Assembly (NCBI GenBank): GCA_964537895.1
Contig: CAZIDK010000001.1
Coordinates: 134,198-198,197, forward strand
Origin: an uncultured Gammaproteobacteria bacterium
GTDB taxonomy: Bacteria; Patescibacteriota; Microgenomatia; Levybacterales; UBA12049
DNA length: 64,000 bases
Direction: 5' to 3'
Below the pieces are notes generated by a model. It ran no database searches. It had not been told where the DNA came from and saw nothing but the letters and a program-made list of their open reading frames with translations. A program made the translations under genes and the position numbers. This document shows positions 15,842 to 32,043 of the stretch, piece by piece (the first letter of the stretch is position 1; each line of letters starts with the position of its first letter).

Positions 15842-17716
15842 GTGGTATCATTATACGGTATGAGGCAAGATTTTCTCAAGGACTTGAATAAGGAACAGCT
15901 CCAGGCAGTGCTTCAAAAAAATGGTCCGATGATAATATTAGCCGGAGCAGGTAGCGGCAAAACAAGGGTTTTAACCTATAAAGTTATCTATTTAATTTCA
16001 GAAGGGATAAGTCCTTTCAACATTCTCATGGTAACTTTTACTAATAAAGCCAGTAAAGAAATGAAAGAAAGAATGCAAAAGTTTTTTAAAAAAGGTGACA
16101 AACAGGTTTCCGAACTTCCGTCAATATCTACTTTTCATGCGCTTTGTGCAAAAATATTAAGAATTGAAGGTAAATACATTGGGATCCCAAATAATTTCTT
16201 AATATACGATAGTCAAGATCAAAAAGACACAATAAAAGAAGCCTTTAATCTTTTAGGGCTATCTCTAAAAGAGTACAAACCTTCATCTATTCTTGCAACC
16301 ATATCTCAAGCAAAAAACGAATTAATTGATGAAACACAATATCCGTCTTTTGCCAGAGGGCATTTTCAAGAAGTAGTTTCCAGAGTTTATGTAATTTATC
16401 AAAAAATCTTAAAGGAAAATGCTGCTTTGGATTTTGATGATTTAATTTTAAAAACAGTTGAGTTATTTAGAAAAAACCCGGATGTTTTGGAAAAATATCA
16501 AAATAAATTTAAGTATATTTTTGTAGATGAATATCAGGACACAAATCACGCACAATACCTGCTTACGAAACTGCTTAGCCGGAAATGGAACAATATTTGC
16601 GTCGTCGGCGATTTTTCTCAAAGCATATATAGTTTTAGAGGCGCAGATTTTTTAAACCTTGCAAAGTTTAAAGAGGATTTTAAAGATACAAAAACTTTTT
16701 CTCTTTCACAAAATTATAGATCAACTCAAAGAATTCTTGACGGGGCTTCTTCTGTTATATCTAAAAATAACGGTCATCCTGTTTTACAACTTTGGACCGA
16801 AAACAAAGCCGGAGAAGATATTTCAATTTTTGAAGCGTTAAATGAACAGCGTGAAGCGGAATTTACCTTAGAAGAAATGGAAAAAATTAAATATCAGAAT
16901 CCGAGTTTAAGATATTATGATTTCGCAATTCTTTACAGGACAAACGCGCAATCGAGGGCAATTGAGGAAGTTTTTATTCATAGCGGAATTCCATACATCC
17001 TAATCGGCGGAACAAGATTTTACGAAAGAAAAGAAGTCAAAGATGTGCTTTCTTATTTAAGAGTTATTGCAAATCCCAAAGACAAAATTTCTTTAAAAAG
17101 ATTAGAAAAATTAGGCAAAGGAAAATTTGTTAAATTCCTGGATTTTCAAAAAACTTTAGATGAAAAAAATATAAGTAGTGATACGACAATTTCTATTATG
17201 GATAGTGCTTTAAAAGCAACAGATTATCTTTCTTTATACAACGCAAAAGACGGGGAAGATTTGGGAAGACTTGAAAATATCAAGGAGCTTCGTTCTGTTG
17301 CAATCTCCTATCCTAATCTTGGAGAGTTTTTAGAAAATGTATCTTTGGTTGAACAAGAATATATACCCGATCACATAAAAGACGAAAACGGCAAGAAAGA
17401 TGCAATAAATTTAATGACTTTGCATGCGGCTAAAGGTTTGGAGTTTCCTGTTGTTTTTATGGTAGGAATGGAAGAGGGACTTTTTCCGCATAGCAGGAGC
17501 ATGATGGATAAAAATGAACTTGAAGAAGAAAGAAGACTCTGTTATGTTGGGATGACAAGAGCTAAAGAAAAACTCTTTTTAACCTATTCAAGAAAAAGGC
17601 TTTTCTTCGGACAAAAAACGACAAATATTGTGTCTAGATTTATACTGGAACTTCCGGAAGGAGTGTTGGAGAAAAGCTTAAATCGGATACGGATTGACGT
17701 TCCTGAATATTTATGA
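15842..17716 (+). CDS. UvrD/PcrA-family ATP-dependent DNA helicase
   Basis: GAGSGKTRVLT Walker A, FVDEYQDTN Walker B, helicase motifs through the Q-rich and VGMTRAK motif VI regions. The likely start is Met-7 (15860). Confidence 0.9.
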   Translation: MVSLYGMRQDFLKDLNKEQLQAVLQKNGPMIILAGAGSGKTRVLTYKVIYLISEGISPFNILMVTFTNKASKEMKERMQKFFKKGDKQVSELPSISTFHALCAKILRIEGKYIGIPNNFLIYDSQDQKDTIKEAFNLLGLSLKEYKPSSILATISQAKNELIDETQYPSFARGHFQEVVSRVYVIYQKILKENAALDFDDLILKTVELFRKNPDVLEKYQNKFKYIFVDEYQDTNHAQYLLTKLLSRKWNNICVVGDFSQSIYSFRGADFLNLAKFKEDFKDTKTFSLSQNYRSTQRILDGASSVISKNNGHPVLQLWTENKAGEDISIFEALNEQREAEFTLEEMEKIKYQNPSLRYYDFAILYRTNAQSRAIEEVFIHSGIPYILIGGTRFYERKEVKDVLSYLRVIANPKDKISLKRLEKLGKGKFVKFLDFQKTLDEKNISSDTTISIMDSALKATDYLSLYNAKDGEDLGRLENIKELRSVAISYPNLGEFLENVSLVEQEYIPDHIKDENGKKDAINLMTLHAAKGLEFPVVFMVGMEEGLFPHSRSMMDKNELEEERRLCYVGMTRAKEKLFLTYSRKRLFFGQKTTNIVSRFILELPEGVLEKSLNRIRIDVPEYL

Positions 17717-24402: not shown

Positions 24403-25374
24403 CTAATTTAGATATTTTTCAATATTTTCCAGATGCTCTTCGTATGTAACCGAACAATGAATCTGGCCATGAGAATCATGTAAATAATATATACAGTCCG
24501 TTTCCTCGGGATTTAAGGCTGCTTTTATAGCATCTATTCCGGGGTTGGAAATAGGATGAGGAGGAAGTCCGGCATTTTTATAACTGTTGTAAGGAGAATC
24601 TATTTCTTTTATGTCGGATGGCGTAACAATCGGCCACCATACGCCGTTTGTTTTACCTTTTGCATACTGGATAGTAGCATCGGCTTGCAGTTTTTGACCA
24701 ATAAGAAGCCTGTTCCATAGGATACCAGCGATAATAGGCATGTCTGAAGGCCCCCCTGCCTCTCTTTGGACAATGGAAGCTAATTTGAGCCCCGTCGTCC
24801 ATTTAATATTTTTCCTTGCAAACCCATCAAGATAAGGTGCTAATTTTTCGTTGAAATGATTAATCATCCTGTTTGCAATTTCTAAGCCGTTTTCTTTAAC
24901 CGGAATAAGATAGGTATCCGGAAAATAAACTCCTTCCATATAATCGTATTTCATTGCTGTATAGGTATTGTTCCATTTCTCCAATTCTTCATCGCTCCAG
25001 CCAAAAGTTAATTTAAGATTTTCCCCTATTTGTTCTTTCCGCATTCCCTCAAGCACGGTTATCCATTTTAAATCGGGGCCCTTGGTTATTTTGTCGATAA
25101 CTGTCCAGGTGTCCATATTTTTTGAAAGATAATATCCGCCCGGCTGTACTTTACCATGCTTTCCTTTTAAGTTTAAGGCAATTTCAAACGCAATCATGGA
25201 TTTAACGAAACCCTTTTCGGAAAGTGTTAAGCCTGCAACATCGTCTCTGTCGGTATCCAAAGTTACGATTTCTATTTTGCTTTCGGATTTGGGCGCGCTG
25301 AAGGGATTAAGGAAAAAATAGGCGGAAGCGATAGAAAGCAAGAGAACAAAAAATAGTACTGTAATTTTTTTCAT
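24403..25374 (-). CDS. mltG: endolytic murein transglycosylase MltG (YceG-like)
   Basis: An N-terminal TM is followed by the YceG core: ...GGYYLSKNM..., LASIVQREAG, QADATIQYA, YNSYKNAGLPPHPISNPG. Confidence 0.85.
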   Translation of the reverse strand: MKKITVLFFVLLLSIASAYFFLNPFSAPKSESKIEIVTLDTDRDDVAGLTLSEKGFVKSMIAFEIALNLKGKHGKVQPGGYYLSKNMDTWTVIDKITKGPDLKWITVLEGMRKEQIGENLKLTFGWSDEELEKWNNTYTAMKYDYMEGVYFPDTYLIPVKENGLEIANRMINHFNEKLAPYLDGFARKNIKWTTGLKLASIVQREAGGPSDMPIIAGILWNRLLIGQKLQADATIQYAKGKTNGVWWPIVTPSDIKEIDSPYNSYKNAGLPPHPISNPGIDAIKAALNPEETDCIYYLHDSHGQIHCSVTYEEHLENIEKYLN

Positions 25375-25470: not shown

Positions 25471-26124
25471 TTATACTTCTTGTTTAGAAACTTGGTTAAT
25501 ATATTTTGTAATTGTCTTATCTGTTATTTCTTCCAGAGGAATTGCTGTTTGATTTTGTAATTGTTTTTCTAAATCTAACGCCCTTTTTCTTCTTAACTCT
25601 ACTTCCTCGATATCTGAGAGCTGATGATCTCTTCCTCTGTATCTTTTGATAATCTCATCAAAGCGTTCATTTATTTTAACTACTGCAAAGGGAGCACATC
25701 TAAGATCTGCATATGTAACAATTTTTAGATTAAAGTTAGCTGATACAAGGACTTCTTGTAATCTTGAACTTCCCGTATGGGTAAGGACTTCATAAACATC
25801 TTCTGTGTTTTTTAATTCTTTTACCATTTTGTATGTTGCAAGATGTTCATCGTTATTATATTTACTTTTATAAATTTGCTGTTGTGTTTCCCAAAATTTA
25901 ATCTTTTTCTTTTCTTCAATAGTTAGGAAATTATTTGCTAAATCAAATTTAATAATATTTCCTATATCGTGAAGTAATAATGATTTAATAATTAGAGCCT
26001 TATCTACTTTATTAGGATTTTTAAAGTTATCCGAAAGATAGACTCCTAAAGCAGCCGCTCTTATTTGGTGTTGCTGCAGAAGTTGAGGAACTGGATATTT
26101 TTTATATATTGATGTTATTATCAC
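25471..26124 (-). CDS. HD-domain phosphohydrolase
   Basis: LLLHDIGN is the HD motif. A downstream D and the helical core are present. Confidence 0.65.
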   Translation of the reverse strand: MIITSIYKKYPVPQLLQQHQIRAAALGVYLSDNFKNPNKVDKALIIKSLLLHDIGNIIKFDLANNFLTIEEKKKIKFWETQQQIYKSKYNNDEHLATYKMVKELKNTEDVYEVLTHTGSSRLQEVLVSANFNLKIVTYADLRCAPFAVVKINERFDEIIKRYRGRDHQLSDIEEVELRRKRALDLEKQLQNQTAIPLEEITDKTITKYINQVSKQEV

Positions 26125-26254
26125 ATCATAATTATATCAGAAGAATAATTGAGGCTAAAACCGAACCCGCCTAAAGACTCTAGCTTTACTTGATATTTAA
26201 TGGTAAAATCAACTACATTCCGCCGCAGTCAAACGCGGCTGGGAAGTTAGACAT

Positions 26255-26510
26255 TCCGCGGTAGCTCAACGGTAGAGCAGGAAACTGTAAAATAATGCAG
26301 CCCTCAATGGAAATGTTGAGGAGAAAAACTGGGCTAATTCGGGGAAACCCCTAGGGGCAATCCCGAGCTAAATCTCGCAAGAGTAAATGTGTAGAGACTA
26401 TATACCCAGGACCTAACTCGCAAGATATGGTCAAGAGATAGTCCACGCTTCGATGAAAGTCGGGGATAAGTGTAATTTCAAGGTTCTAGGTTCGAATCCT
26501 AGCCGCGGAG
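26255..26510 (+). tRNA. tRNA gene interrupted in the anticodon loop by a probable group I intron of about 184 nt; anticodon UGU (Thr) or GUA (Tyr) depending on intron boundary
   Basis: A 7-bp acceptor stem pairs tccgcgg (26255-61) with ccgcgga (26503-09). There is a D arm gctc/gagc. The T arm is ctagg-TTCGAAT-cctag (26486-26502). Between the 5' anticodon-stem half (ggaaa|ct, ends in U at 26286) and the 3' exon lies about 184 nt ending in G (26470). The insert carries group-I-like elements (...gactata..., aagatatggtc...gatagtcc). There is no encoded CCA. Confidence 0.6.
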
Positions 26511-26514
26511 CAGA

Positions 26515-27597
26515 TTAGCCGAGGTAGTCTTTAAGTTTATTGCCGCGGGATGGATGCCTTAATTTCCTCAAGGATTTTGCTTCGATTTGTCTTATTCTTT
26601 CTCTTGTTACCGCAAACATTTTTCCAACCTCTTCCAGCGTTTTTGGCCGTCCGTCTTTTAAGCCAAATCTTTCTTCCAAAACTCTTTTTTCTCTGTCAGA
26701 AAGAGTTGATAAGACCTGTTCTACCTGCTCTTTTAAAAGTTCCCTACTTGCCGTGTCAAAAAGAGTCGGAGCCGCAGTATCGTGAATAAAATCACCTAAG
26801 CGCGAATCTTCTTCGTCTCCAACAGGCGATTCTAAACTTGCCGGCTCCTGGGAAATTTTAATTATCTCCAACGCTTTTTCAGGGTCAATATCCAAAGCTT
26901 TGGCAACTTCTTCAGGCGTTGGCTCTCTTCCTAACTCCTGCATCAATTTTCTTGATGCTCTTAGAAATCTATTGATATTTTCAACCATATGAACAGGAAT
27001 CCTGATGGTCCTTGCCTGGTCAGCAATGGCGCGTGTTATGGATTGCCTAATCCACCAAGTCGCATAAGTTGAAAACTTATAACCCCTTCTCCAATCGTAT
27101 TTTTCAACTGCTCTTATTAAACCCTGATTTCCCTCCTGGATTAAATCTAAAAGCGTTAACCCACGACCGACATATTTTTTAGCAATAGACACAACTAATC
27201 TTAAATTTGAATTTACAAGAATTTTCTTTGCTTCGTGGTCTGCTTTTTCAACTCTTTTTGCCAAAGAGATTTCTTGGTCAAAGGTTAAAAGAGGAATTCT
27301 GCCGATTTCTTTAAGATACATTCTTACCGGGTCGGAGACTGTGCCTTCAGTTAAAACAGTTAATGCTTCCAGTTCTTTTTCCAAATCTTCTATCGGCTTC
27401 TCATTGCTCTGATCGGCTGCAACGGACTCAAAAACATCAATATCCGAATGCATTAATTTATCGTAAAGCTGATCAAGCTCAACAATGTGCTCTTCCGGAT
27501 GGGGAAAAATAGATAAAATTTCGTCTTGGGTGATATACCCGCGTTTTTTAGCAGACATAACGATATCTAATAAAATATTTGGCTGTTTTTGTTTCAT
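26515..27597 (-). CDS. rpoD: RNA polymerase primary sigma factor (sigma-70, RpoD)
   Basis: Region 2.x is [29 protein letters not shown]. The region 4 HTH is ...[30 protein letters not shown]. It lies downstream of dnaG. Confidence 0.93.
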
Positions 27598-27650
27598 AGC
27601 AGTCGGCTCTTCTATTTTAACACGAAATGCGGATAAAATAAACCTAGAGT

Positions 27651-29330
27651 TTAATCTTTGGAGACAGATTTCTTTTTCTCTCTTGCGTTAACCTCGGAAA
27701 GCTCGTCTGCCACCTTTACCAGGTCTTCAAAATATTTTTCCTCATTGTTAAACGCCGGCAAAGGTAAAAGATAGCAGCTGTCAAAAGATTTAAGCAGTTC
27801 TGCTGGAAGTCCTTTTGATATTTTTTTGCTGTCAATTTTGGTTTCATTTTTTATGGCTGCGGTCATAAAATCCATAATTTTCTGATATGAGGGTATTTCA
27901 AACTTATAATCCTCGAGAATTTTATTGGCTTTTTCCAAAGCCAGATTTAGGTCCTCACTTTGAACAATAAGCGCTATCAAGTATTCCTCTAAAATCTCGC
28001 GCCTTTTTCGCTTATCAGAAGTTCCAACCGCAACTTTTTCCGATTTTTTCCCGCTTTGATATTTATCTATTTCCTTAGTGATGCTTTCTATAGAAGTATC
28101 TATCTCCTTACTTAATTTTTTAACATAATGTTCTCTTACTACTTCGTTTTCAACTGCGGAAAGAAGAGGTTTCATTTCTTCTACTATCCTCCCTTTCCCC
28201 TGAGATGATGTTTTATCGTAAAGTGACAAAAATTTATCAATTAAAAAATCATAGACTCCAATATCCTCTTTTAACGCTTTTTTAAACGCGCCGGCGTTTT
28301 TTTTAATCGCTTCGTCCGGGTCTTTTCCGTTTGGCACAACAACGATTGTCGTTGTTAAACTTTTTTTTTCAATTATCGGCATGCTTCTTTTTATGGCCTC
28401 AAAACCGGCTTCGTCCATATCAAGACAAAGAGTAATTTTAGGAGTAAAACGAGACAAAAGCGCAACTTGATTTTCGGTTAATGCCGTTCCTTTTATGGCA
28501 ATCGTATTCCTTATTCCCTCTTTAAAACAAGCAATAACGTCAAATTCCCCTTCAACCAAAATTGCCTGCTGTTGTTTTTTTATTTCGTCCTTTGCATTAT
28601 CCAGCCCAAAAAAAAGACTCCCCTTATGATAAACGCTTGTCTCCTTTGTGTTGATATATTTCGGACTATCGGAATTTTCATCTAATATCCTGGCTGAAAA
28701 CCCAACTATATTTCCTCTATGATCCGACAAGGAGAACATTAGTCTTCCTCTAAAAAAATCGACTGTTCTCCCGCCGTTTTCAAAAGCAAGTCCCGCAAGA
28801 TACAAATCCTGTTTTTTGTATCCCTTTTTGTTCATTAAGTAGTTTGACAATGCGGTTCCGGAAGGAGGGGAAGAACCAAGAGAAAAAGTCTCGATTAGTT
28901 TTTCCGACAATCCCCTTTTTTCCTTTAAATAAAAAAGGGCTTTTTTACCAAGATTATGTTTTAGTAAAACGTATTGATAAAATTTTAAGGCTTGCTTGTT
29001 AAGCGAATAAATTTTTTCTTTTTCCGATTGGGCCTGGTTGTCGTAACTAAAACTTTTAAGCTCGACACCTGCCTTTTTTGCCAAAACCCTTAAGGCTTCG
29101 GGAAACTCCATGTTTTCGTATTGCATTAAAAATGAGAATGCGTCTCCGCCTTTTTGGCAGCCGAAACAATGCCAAATTTGCCGTTCCGGAGAAACCATAA
29201 ACGAAGGGGATTTTTCATTGTGGAATGGACAGTTTGCCTTAAAATTCCTGCCTGCTTTTTTTAATGGCAAATATTCGGAAATAAACGAAACTATATCTAT
29301 TTTTTCTCTGACGTCTGAAGCTTGATCCAT
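27651..29330 (-). CDS. dnaG: DNA primase
   Basis: The zinc ribbon is [13 protein letters not shown]...[16 protein letters not shown] ([12 protein letters not shown]-x-D) is present. The dnaG-rpoD pair is syntenic. Confidence 0.92.
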
Positions 29331-29397
29331 TTCGTGTATTGTACCACGAGTCCCACATTTTTGAAATGTGAGGGGTTGCTTTTACTAATGATATTAG

Positions 29398-30687
<1,290 letters not shown>

Positions 30688-30699
30688 ATCATTATCTCT

Positions 30700-32043
30700 A
30701 TGAAAAATAATTTATTAGCCATTAATCCTTTGGACGGAAGATATATCGATAAAATTTCGGAGCTTTCCGAATTTGTTTCAGAATATGCCTTAATAAAATA
30801 TCGAGTCGAAGTCGAAATAAGATACCTCATTGCACTGTCCGAATTAGGAATTGTAAGGAGTTTAAACAAAGGAGAAAAAGATTTTCTCCTTTCAATTTAT
30901 TTCAAATTTAATATCAATGACGCAGAAAAAATAAAAAAGATCGAACAAGAAACTAGACACGATGTAAAAGCCGTTGAAAAATATTTAAGGCATGCGTTTG
31001 CAAAAAATTCTTTAAAAGATATTTCGGAAATGATTCATTTCGGGCTTACTTCCGAAGATATTAATAATATTGCCTACCGTTTAATGCTAAAAAACGCGAT
31101 TGAGAAAATTATTCTGCCGACAGTCTCCGAAATTCTAAAAGATTTGAACAAAAAAGCAAAAGAATATAAAAAAGTTGTAATTTTAGGCAGAACTCACGGA
31201 CAGAAAGCCGTTCCCACAACTTTTGGTAAAGAATTTGCTGTTTTTGCAACCAGGCTCGAGAAAGAAATAAAACTTTTAGAAAAACAAAAACTAACCGGAA
31301 AATTAAATGGAGCCGTTGGCAACTACAATGCCTTAGATTTCGCTTACCCGGAATTTGACTGGATTAAATTGTCCAAAAACTTTATTTCGTCTTTTAACTT
31401 AGAACCGAACCTAATTACAACCCAGATTAATGCTTTTGAAGATATAATTTCACTTTTTCAAAACTTGCAAAGAATAAACGGAATTTTATTGGATTTTGAC
31501 CAGGATCTGTGGCGCTATATTAGCGACGGATGGATAAAATTGGCTGTAAAAGGAAAAGAGGTCGGCTCTTCCACAATGCCGCAAAAAGTCAACCCGATTG
31601 ATTTTGAAAATTCCGAAGGCAATTTAACTCTGGCAAACGGCTTGATGCAGACAATTAATGATAAATTATATATATCGCGTTTGCAGCGGGATTTATCAAA
31701 CAGCACGATTATTAGAAATTTAGGAACAGTTTTGGGCTATTGTCTTTTGGGATATAAAAGCGCCTTAGCCGGACTTTCAAGGATTGATGTAAATTTAGAA
31801 CAAATTGAAAAAGACCTTGAAGAGGATTGGTCTGTTCTTTCCGAAGGTTTACAGACATATCTTCGTAAAGAGGGCTTTAATGATTCTTATGTTTTCGTAG
31901 CTAAAGCCACAAAAGGAAAAAAATTAGACAAAGAATCCTGGCAAAAACTTATAAACGATCTCCCGATAGGACAAAAAAATAAAGAGGACTTGCTGAAACT
32001 TACTCCCAAAACCTACATAGGCCTTGCGGAAAAATTAGTTTAA
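30700..32043 (+). CDS. purB: adenylosuccinate lyase
   Basis: NPLDGRY, GRTHGQKAVPTTFGKEF and the fumarate-lyase signature SSTMPQKVNP are present. Confidence 0.93.
   Translation: MKNNLLAINPLDGRYIDKISELSEFVSEYALIKYRVEVEIRYLIALSELGIVRSLNKGEKDFLLSIYFKFNINDAEKIKKIEQETRHDVKAVEKYLRHAFAKNSLKDISEMIHFGLTSEDINNIAYRLMLKNAIEKIILPTVSEILKDLNKKAKEYKKVVILGRTHGQKAVPTTFGKEFAVFATRLEKEIKLLEKQKLTGKLNGAVGNYNALDFAYPEFDWIKLSKNFISSFNLEPNLITTQINAFEDIISLFQNLQRINGILLDFDQDLWRYISDGWIKLAVKGKEVGSSTMPQKVNPIDFENSEGNLTLANGLMQTINDKLYISRLQRDLSNSTIIRNLGTVLGYCLLGYKSALAGLSRIDVNLEQIEKDLEEDWSVLSEGLQTYLRKEGFNDSYVFVAKATKGKKLDKESWQKLINDLPIGQKNKEDLLKLTPKTYIGLAEKLV

Follow-up and report, generated by a model that had tools for sequence, protein, structure and literature searches.

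A compact group I intron between positions 35 and 36 of a tRNA-Asn(GUU) gene from Candidatus Levybacteria

The 64,000-nucleotide (nt) stretch of contig CAZIDK010000001.1 analyzed here, referred to throughout as the window, carries a tRNA gene on its plus strand (26255–26510) whose anticodon loop is interrupted by a 184-nt group I intron. We identify this locus, with a probability of roughly 0.93, as the tRNA-Asn(GUU) gene of a member of Candidatus Levybacteria, split between U35 and U36 by a compact ribozyme that contains no open reading frame (ORF). Introns at position 35/36 of tRNA-Asn(GUU) in Patescibacteria were described as a class by Nakagawa et al. (mSystems 2026, PMC13011429; preprint July 2025). 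The class is already published and was shown to self-splice (2025–2026), and the window locus is a further member that adds little by itself.

Splice junction and tRNA identity

The acceptor stem (TCCGCGG/CCGCGGA), the D arm, the T arm and an anticodon arm split by the insert can be read directly from the sequence, as an earlier note on this DNA had described together with an insert length of about 184 nt. The group-I-like blocks to which that note had pointed were recovered as well (GACTATA at 26397–26403, AAGATATGGTC at 26422–26432 and GATAGTCC at 26437–26444), and two of the checks it had proposed, a search with the Rfam group I model and a tRNA call, both returned the element. When the whole 64-kb window was scanned against Rfam, RF00028 (Intron_gpI) matched only once, at 26279–26465 on the plus strand, over the full model (model positions 1–253) and with 67.1 bits (E-value 7.6e-15), above the gathering score of 50 bits. 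ARAGORN in default mode reported no tRNA in the whole window, and lowering the score threshold changed nothing. With introns allowed it called exactly one, a tRNA-Asn(gtt) at 26255–26511 with a 184-nt intron after position 35.

All nine junctions that yield a 7-nt anticodon loop were enumerated. Only two of these combine a U before the 5′ splice site with a G at the end of the intron, namely 26287–26470, which would give an anticodon for Thr (UGU), and 26289–26472, which gives one for Asn (GUU). In the Rfam alignment the splice-site U is U26288, which pairs with G26297, and U26286 pairs with A26299, so that of the two rule-obeying junctions the Asn junction alone has the U·G wobble. This wobble at U26288/G26297, together with the intron-aware ARAGORN call after position 35, places the intron at 26289–26472 (Table 1).

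Ligation at these bounds yields a 72-nt tRNA-Asn with the anticodon loop CUGUUAA and the insertion site 35/36, and the ligated RNA would read ...GGAAACUGU followed by UAAUUUC..., with U35 joined to U36. The exact ligated junction, TAGAGCAGGAAACTGTTAATTTCAAGGTT, is present in 60 metagenome contigs as an uninterrupted tRNA gene, and 20 of these 60 intronless genes match the predicted product of the window at 72/72 positions. Taken separately, the 5′ exon agrees in every base with the first 34 nt of the tRNA-Asn genes that 20 metagenome contigs carry without an intron. At the 3′ end, G26510 is the discriminator base; CCA is not encoded and CAG comes next.

A two-base shift of the junction turns the same locus into a tRNA-Thr(UGU) with an intron at 26287–26470 and an insertion site at 33/34, and this is how the earlier note had bounded the insert (U26286 and G26470) and read its anticodon. 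This Thr reading also satisfies the rule of a U ahead of the 5′ splice site (U26286) and a G as the last intron base (G26470), and its product passes in ARAGORN as tRNA-Thr(tgt). The U·G wobble is lacking, however, with U26286 paired to A26299. Among the 27 loci, just 7 would retain a G at the intron end under this shift, and four anticodons would result (UGU, CGU, AGU and GGU), whereas the Asn junction works in 27/27 loci. The window exons are those of uninterrupted tRNA-Asn(GTT) genes over all 72 positions, and the tRNA body has U1-A72 and G73, as is usual for tRNA-Asn in bacteria but not for tRNA-Thr. Introns at 35/36 are known to be missed by standard tools or miscalled as Thr(UGU) at 33/34: ARAGORN and tFind give the Thr call on many homologues, which is a documented artefact of the two-base shift, and the homologues were found by sequencing to be excised at 35/36 (Nakagawa et al., 2026). 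The Asn junction is preferred because of the wobble pair, the homologous loci, the intronless alleles and the published excision at 35/36 in homologues. The Thr model, whose ligated product would read ...ACU followed by UGUAAUUU..., is effectively refuted and we regard it as very improbable.

Moving the junction 1–4 nt to the 3′ side of the Asn junction produces the loop CUGUAAA, read by ARAGORN as tRNA-Tyr, and a Tyr anticodon (GUA) had been the second possibility named in the earlier note. According to this alternative the insert would lie 3′ of the anticodon and be cut out by a protein endonuclease, as in archaea and eukaryotes. Such introns resemble the present case in being inserted in the anticodon loop of a tRNA; they are usually short, lie mostly at 37/38, form a bulge-helix-bulge and are cut by proteins, whereas the window insert has a complete group I core and lies in a bacterial genome. 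The Tyr junctions also fail to combine a U before the 5′ site with a G at the intron end, and the variable loop of the window tRNA is 5 nt long. Bacterial tRNA-Tyr has a long variable arm, and genuine tRNA-Tyr genes with 35/36 introns, found in viral contigs (see below), do carry that arm. With the 72/72 match to intronless tRNA-Asn genes the Tyr model is effectively refuted, and it has even less claim to be correct than tRNA-Thr. The tRNA with a group I intron in its anticodon loop thus stands as the earlier note had described it; its exact bounds, which were off by 2 nt (U26288 and G26472 being indicated by the Rfam alignment, ARAGORN and the intronless alleles), and both of its amino acid identities do not.

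For annotation, the consequence is that default tRNA callers overlook this gene and inspection by eye suggests a wrong amino acid. Where such genes are missed or miscalled, the tRNA complements of bacteria of the Candidate Phyla Radiation (CPR) are distorted, as are estimates of genome completeness and inferences on codon usage; Nakagawa et al. (2026) also make this point, and the window locus is a further clean example.

Fold and predicted splicing of the intron

The paired elements (P) and joining segments (J) of the intron were read from its sequence and from a 27-sequence alignment. RNAalifold has no pseudoknot model and mispaired the 5′ strand of P3, so an explicit pseudoknotted structure was used instead, on which 45 pairs were counted. 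Standard pairing was found in 93.0% of the cells for these 45 pairs, compared with 33–48% when the 3′ partners were slid by 1–3 columns. Compensatory changes occur in 26 of the 45 pairs, and none of 500 shuffles attained the observed values (0/500). In this alignment the P3/P7 pseudoknot and the P1–P9 fold are backed by covariation. The U26288·G26297 wobble is kept in 21/21 aligned sequences and the remaining P1 pairs in 25–26 of 26. P7 is invariant in 26/26 sequences save for one covarying pair, and both the column of the bulged A26395 and those of G26396–C26443, which is presumably the guanosine-binding pair, do not vary. The CCUAAC...UAUGG segment of P8 resembles a tetraloop receptor. No ORF is present within the 184 nt, nor is there room for one.

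Some observations weigh against the proposed identification. A single-sequence fold recovers P2, P4, P5 and P9 and beats shuffled sequences only modestly (z = −1.77), as is expected for a pseudoknotted RNA. Judged from the sequence alone, P10 of the window variant pairs weakly with the 3′ exon, and the nearest experimentally tested intron, the Asp intron of the Microgenomatia genome GCA_001029755.1, is only about 59% identical overall, the two introns sharing long identical core blocks.

The weak P10 would also fit a decaying or protein-dependent relic, that is, a pseudogene or an intron that needs a host factor for splicing. Further points in line with such a relic are a P5 of just 3 bp, the lack of peripheral extensions, a length equal to that of the shortest tRNA intron of Nakagawa et al. 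(range 184–894 bp) and the inverted orientation of the tRNA gene relative to its relatives (see below). Against it, the catalytic core is intact at its invariant columns (P7, the bulged A, J8/7, the U·G wobble and the terminal G), and the exons do not differ from those of intronless alleles that look functional. The gene is preceded by a promoter-like element, and a second, divergent genome maintains an identical copy of the intron. In addition, self-splicing in vitro in the absence of protein is known for a compact intron of the same type that is 196 nt long. We consider a relic improbable, if less so than either of the shifted junctions, and favor an intron that probably self-splices with guanosine. 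Catalysis is inferred here because homologous introns of the same class, at 35/36 in the tRNAs for Asn and Asp, self-splice in vitro. For these homologues splicing was guanosine-dependent, sequencing of the spliced products placed excision precisely at 35/36, and a G-to-C change at the intron end blocked exon ligation (Nakagawa et al., 2026).

By analogy, the tRNA's own promoter would drive transcription of the precursor, whose intron would fold into the P1–P9 core, in which P1 arises from pairing of the guide GCAG to CUGU of the exon and U26288·G26297 marks the 5′ splice site. An external guanosine bound at the G-C pair of P7 would attack after U26288, and G26472 would then take its place in the binding site. 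The freed 3′-OH of U35 would attack after G26472, which would join U35 to U36 and release a free 184-nt intron.

The putative tRNA promoter is an extended −10-like element, TGGTAAAAT, and its role is proposed from sequence features. The TTTAATGGTAAAAT motif of the window also stands upstream of the identical intron-containing copy in the second genome, and TGnTAAAAT or TATAAT boxes lie 8–12 nt upstream of most intronless alleles. A simple consensus scan of the tRNA upstream region returned weak sigma-70-like sites only.

The same region holds a 9-nt direct repeat, ACATTCCGC, at 26215–26223 and 26251–26259. A module consisting of promoter, ACAT and tRNA start is present twice in this way at a distance of 36 nt, and the two copies flank a small hairpin (GCCGC...GCGGC). 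An 11-nt piece of the tRNA 5′ end likewise precedes the full gene in two other loci (L045 and L076). The direct repeat at 26215–26259 may be the scar of a past rearrangement.

Table 1. Coordinates of the split tRNA gene, the elements of its intron and the neighboring genes in the window
Feature	Position	Strand	Basis or remark
Extended −10-like promoter element TGGTAAAAT, upstream of tRNA	26201–26209	+	Putative, from sequence
5′ exon, tRNA-Asn(GUU) positions 1–35, ending C32 U33 G34 U35	26255–26288	+	ARAGORN with introns allowed; intronless genes
Group I intron, 184 nt, without ORF	26289–26472	+	RF00028; bounds from U·G wobble, terminal G and intronless alleles
3′ exon: U36 A37 A38, anticodon-stem 3′ strand, variable loop, T arm, acceptor 3′ strand, G73	26473–26510	+	
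P1: exon C26285–U26288 with internal guide G26297–G26300; extended by A26289–U26296	26285–26300	+	Rfam alignment
P2 hairpin, 8 bp: 26302–26309 with 26314–26321; GAAA tetraloop 26310–26313	26302–26321	+	6/8 pairs compensatory
P3: 26329–26333 with 26405–26409; pseudoknotted with P7; encloses P4, P5, P6 and P6a	26329–26409	+	5/5 pairs compensatory
P4	26339–26344 with 26361–26366	+	2/6 pairs compensatory
P5, 3 bp	26348–26350 with 26355–26357	+	3/3 pairs compensatory
P6	26367–26368 with 26389–26390	+	Never varies
P6a, GCAA loop	26374–26376 with 26381–26383	+	Sequence reading only
P7: G26394 and 26396–26400 with 26439–26444; bulged A26395; encloses P8 and J8/7	26394–26444	+	
P8, GCAA loop	26410–26413 with 26429–26432	+	3/4 pairs compensatory
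J8/7, AAGAGA	26433–26438	+	
P9 hairpin, 7 bp: 26448–26454 with 26459–26465; GAAA tetraloop 26455–26458	26448–26465	+	6/7 pairs compensatory
3′ tail, 7 nt, ends with G26472	26466–26472	+	
Omega-G, terminal guanosine of the intron	26472	+	G before UAA and anticodon-stem 3′ strand in 27/27 loci
MltG/YceG	24403–25374	−	
HD-domain protein	25471–26124	−	
rpoD (360 amino acids)	26515–27597	−	
dnaG	27651–29330	−	
purA	29416–30687	+	
purB	30700–32043	+	

Related introns and their distribution

Nakagawa et al. (2026) analyzed complete genomes only; most of their 35/36 introns have no homing endonuclease gene, 25 of the 28 introns at this site were classed as subgroup IA and not IC, and horizontal transfer was concluded to be limited. 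The window locus agrees with that class in its host tRNA, Asn(GUU), in the 35/36 site, in the phylum Patescibacteria, in having no endonuclease gene and in the behavior of the annotation tools, and its 184 nt equal their minimum length. It differs in that an identical intron occurs here in two divergent genomes, as opposed to the limited transfer found there. By layout the window intron resembles the compact IC3-type tRNA introns, whereas the published 35/36 introns are mostly IA according to subgroup models. It also has no extra hairpin after P7 (between P7 and P3′), unlike the tRNA-Asn introns of five of the related loci described below (L015, L023, L025, L026 and L030). Two Asp introns of Microgenomatia share its compact layout and core blocks, one of 196 nt for which self-splicing was shown (GCA_001029755.1) and one of 184 nt (GCA_030583725.1). 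The sequence of the window intron was not found in the supplement of Nakagawa et al. (2026) in the portion of Table S5 that precedes most of the Patescibacteria rows.

The classical bacterial group I introns of tRNA genes, found in tRNA-Leu(UAA) at 34/35 (cyanobacteria and plastids), in tRNA-fMet(CAU) at 33/34, and in Azoarcus tRNA-Ile and Agrobacterium tRNA-Arg at 36/37 (IC3), lie in other tRNAs and at other positions than the window intron. They are likewise small, ORF-less ribozymes in the anticodon loop whose P1 uses anticodon-loop nucleotides, and they self-splice, as the window intron would by analogy. The core sequences J3/4-P4, J6/7-P7 and J8/7-P7 are very similar when compared with the Anabaena/Nostoc sequence, and the GNRA tetraloops on P2 and P9 as well as the receptor-like motif of P8 recur at the level of sequence.

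A scan of a genome collection for the tRNA D stem and CUGU tied to the intron core returned 29 loci, 26 of which share the layout of the window, in which the tRNA body has U1 and G73, CUGU precedes the intron, a G ends it, and UAA follows with the 3′ strand of the anticodon stem. ARAGORN called the spliced sequences Asn(gtt) in 26 of 27 cases, window included; the remaining locus is truncated. Three loci (L008, L028 and L011) were left out of the alignment. L008 was rejected as a chance match. L028 (132–314, a Chloroflexota metagenome-assembled genome, MAG) is not of the Asn class either; it is a group I intron at 33/34 of tRNA-fMet/Ile2(CAU), followed by a 3′ exon that begins with CATAACCC..., and it agrees with the IC3 introns listed for this tRNA and site in Table S5 of Nakagawa et al. 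(2026). The third, in the tRNA-Asn of a Bdellovibrio sp. MAG (L011, 4484–4670), is a related intron seemingly located one position later, at 36/37 (CUGUU/G...AUG/AA, with slashes at the splice sites).

Introns at 35/36 of tRNA-Asn were found in MAGs labelled Omnitrophota (about 8), Limnocylindria, Gemmatimonadota, Nitrospirota, Betaproteobacteria and several CPR groups. The Omnitrophota, Chloroflexota (Limnocylindria) and Gemmatimonadota MAGs belong to phyla that are absent from the 35/36 list of Nakagawa et al. (2026), which covers complete genomes only. Some of these labels call for caution. The tRNA-Asn, the intron and the downstream flank are near-identical between a Limnocylindria (L004) and a Gemmatimonadales (L005) contig, and the short L005 contig is probably mis-binned. 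Seven MAG contigs titled ‘uncultured Gammaproteobacteria bacterium’ (L014, L017, L018, L020, L024, L025 and L030) carry CPR-type tRNA-Asn genes, and their rpoD, where present, encodes a CPR-like protein of 358–360 amino acids; one of the seven comes from a 615-kb chromosome. These titles look mislabelled.

Related compact introns were also found in contigs of the viral database IMG/VR. Three of them split tRNA-Asn(GUU) at 35/36 (L170, 10709–10917; L180, 3261–3471; L182, 2689–2860) and two split a long-arm tRNA-Tyr(GUA) at the same site (L143, 3092–3254; L169, 9866–10031). Possible carriers of 35/36 introns are phages, or else contigs wrongly classed as viral. The window-specific P1–P2 segment had no exact match in IMG/VR, and blastn of the window intron against GenBank phages returned no match.

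Identical introns in divergent hosts and the gene neighborhood

The RpoD protein of the window shares its 90%-identity cluster with proteins that, where they bear an organism name, are labelled Candidatus Levybacteria or Levyibacteriota. On this single marker the host is assigned to Patescibacteria (CPR), class Microgenomatia, Candidatus Levybacteria, in line with the uncultivated small-genome lineage that the earlier note had expected from an intron-containing tRNA. The proteins of the window are also present in the Logan assembly of SRR13723396.

The intron of the window is identical at 184/184 positions to that of another of the loci (L020, 7266–7526). The two tRNA genes differ at three positions, all of them exonic (tRNA positions 7, 16 and 66), and the exons of each match the intronless allele type of their own host. 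The two hosts are far more distant from each other, with rpoD about 78% identical at the DNA level and the proteins RpoD, DnaG and PurA 89%, 55% and 68% identical, respectively. In two other Levybacteria at comparable distance (L024 and L019) the introns are merely 69–78% identical. Close relatives of both hosts carry no intron: four contigs whose RpoD is 98% identical to that of the window (L063, L068, L074 and L088) have intronless genes with identical exons, and the nearest relative of L020 (L050, RpoD 98.6% identical) has a gene that is intronless at the same site and carries the exon allele of L020 save for one T-loop base. No homing endonuclease was found near the tRNA, the adjacent ORFs in L020 and the window encoding pyruvate kinase, CBS, HD or YceG domains or no domain.

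Identical introns in divergent hosts whose nearest relatives lack the intron suggest a recent lateral spread of an endonuclease-free intron into resident alleles, and the pattern does not fit purely vertical descent. That the 184-nt intron is spreading among Levybacteria genomes at present is a tentative proposal, to which we give slightly less than an even chance. If true, it would mean that an intron can be gained without any intron-encoded enzyme, for which a homing endonuclease acting in trans, reverse splicing and recombination after DNA uptake are candidate routes, and it would run counter to the published view of limited horizontal transfer of tRNA introns (Nakagawa et al., 2026). Should the pattern hold, it becomes possible to test directly how mobile group I introns without an endonuclease are in CPR bacteria.

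The intron-containing gene also differs in orientation from its intronless relatives. In L074 (11375–11500) and L088 (1878–2004) rpoD is followed after 42 nt by the intronless tRNA, both genes being on one strand, whereas the window tRNA is on the strand opposite rpoD, convergent with it, and its 3′ end is 4 nt from the rpoD stop codon. An independent Logan contig equals the window exactly over 26352–30597 and reproduces this junction, so the inverted arrangement is not peculiar to one assembly. None of the relatives examined keeps synteny with the window on the far side of the tRNA, and in a check for a larger rearrangement their flanks on this side could not be placed in the window. There may be a link between the gain of the intron in the window and this inversion of the tRNA beside rpoD.

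The neighbors of the tRNA are ordinary bacterial housekeeping genes (Table 1). Elsewhere in the window, Rfam family RF03531 (n00280, ‘C. difficile sRNA included into helicase gene’) matched at 17497–17595 on the plus strand with 71 bits against a threshold of 65.2. The match lies inside an ORF for a 624-amino-acid UvrD/PcrA-type helicase (15842–17716); it is most likely due to conservation of the coding sequence and not to an RNA gene of its own.

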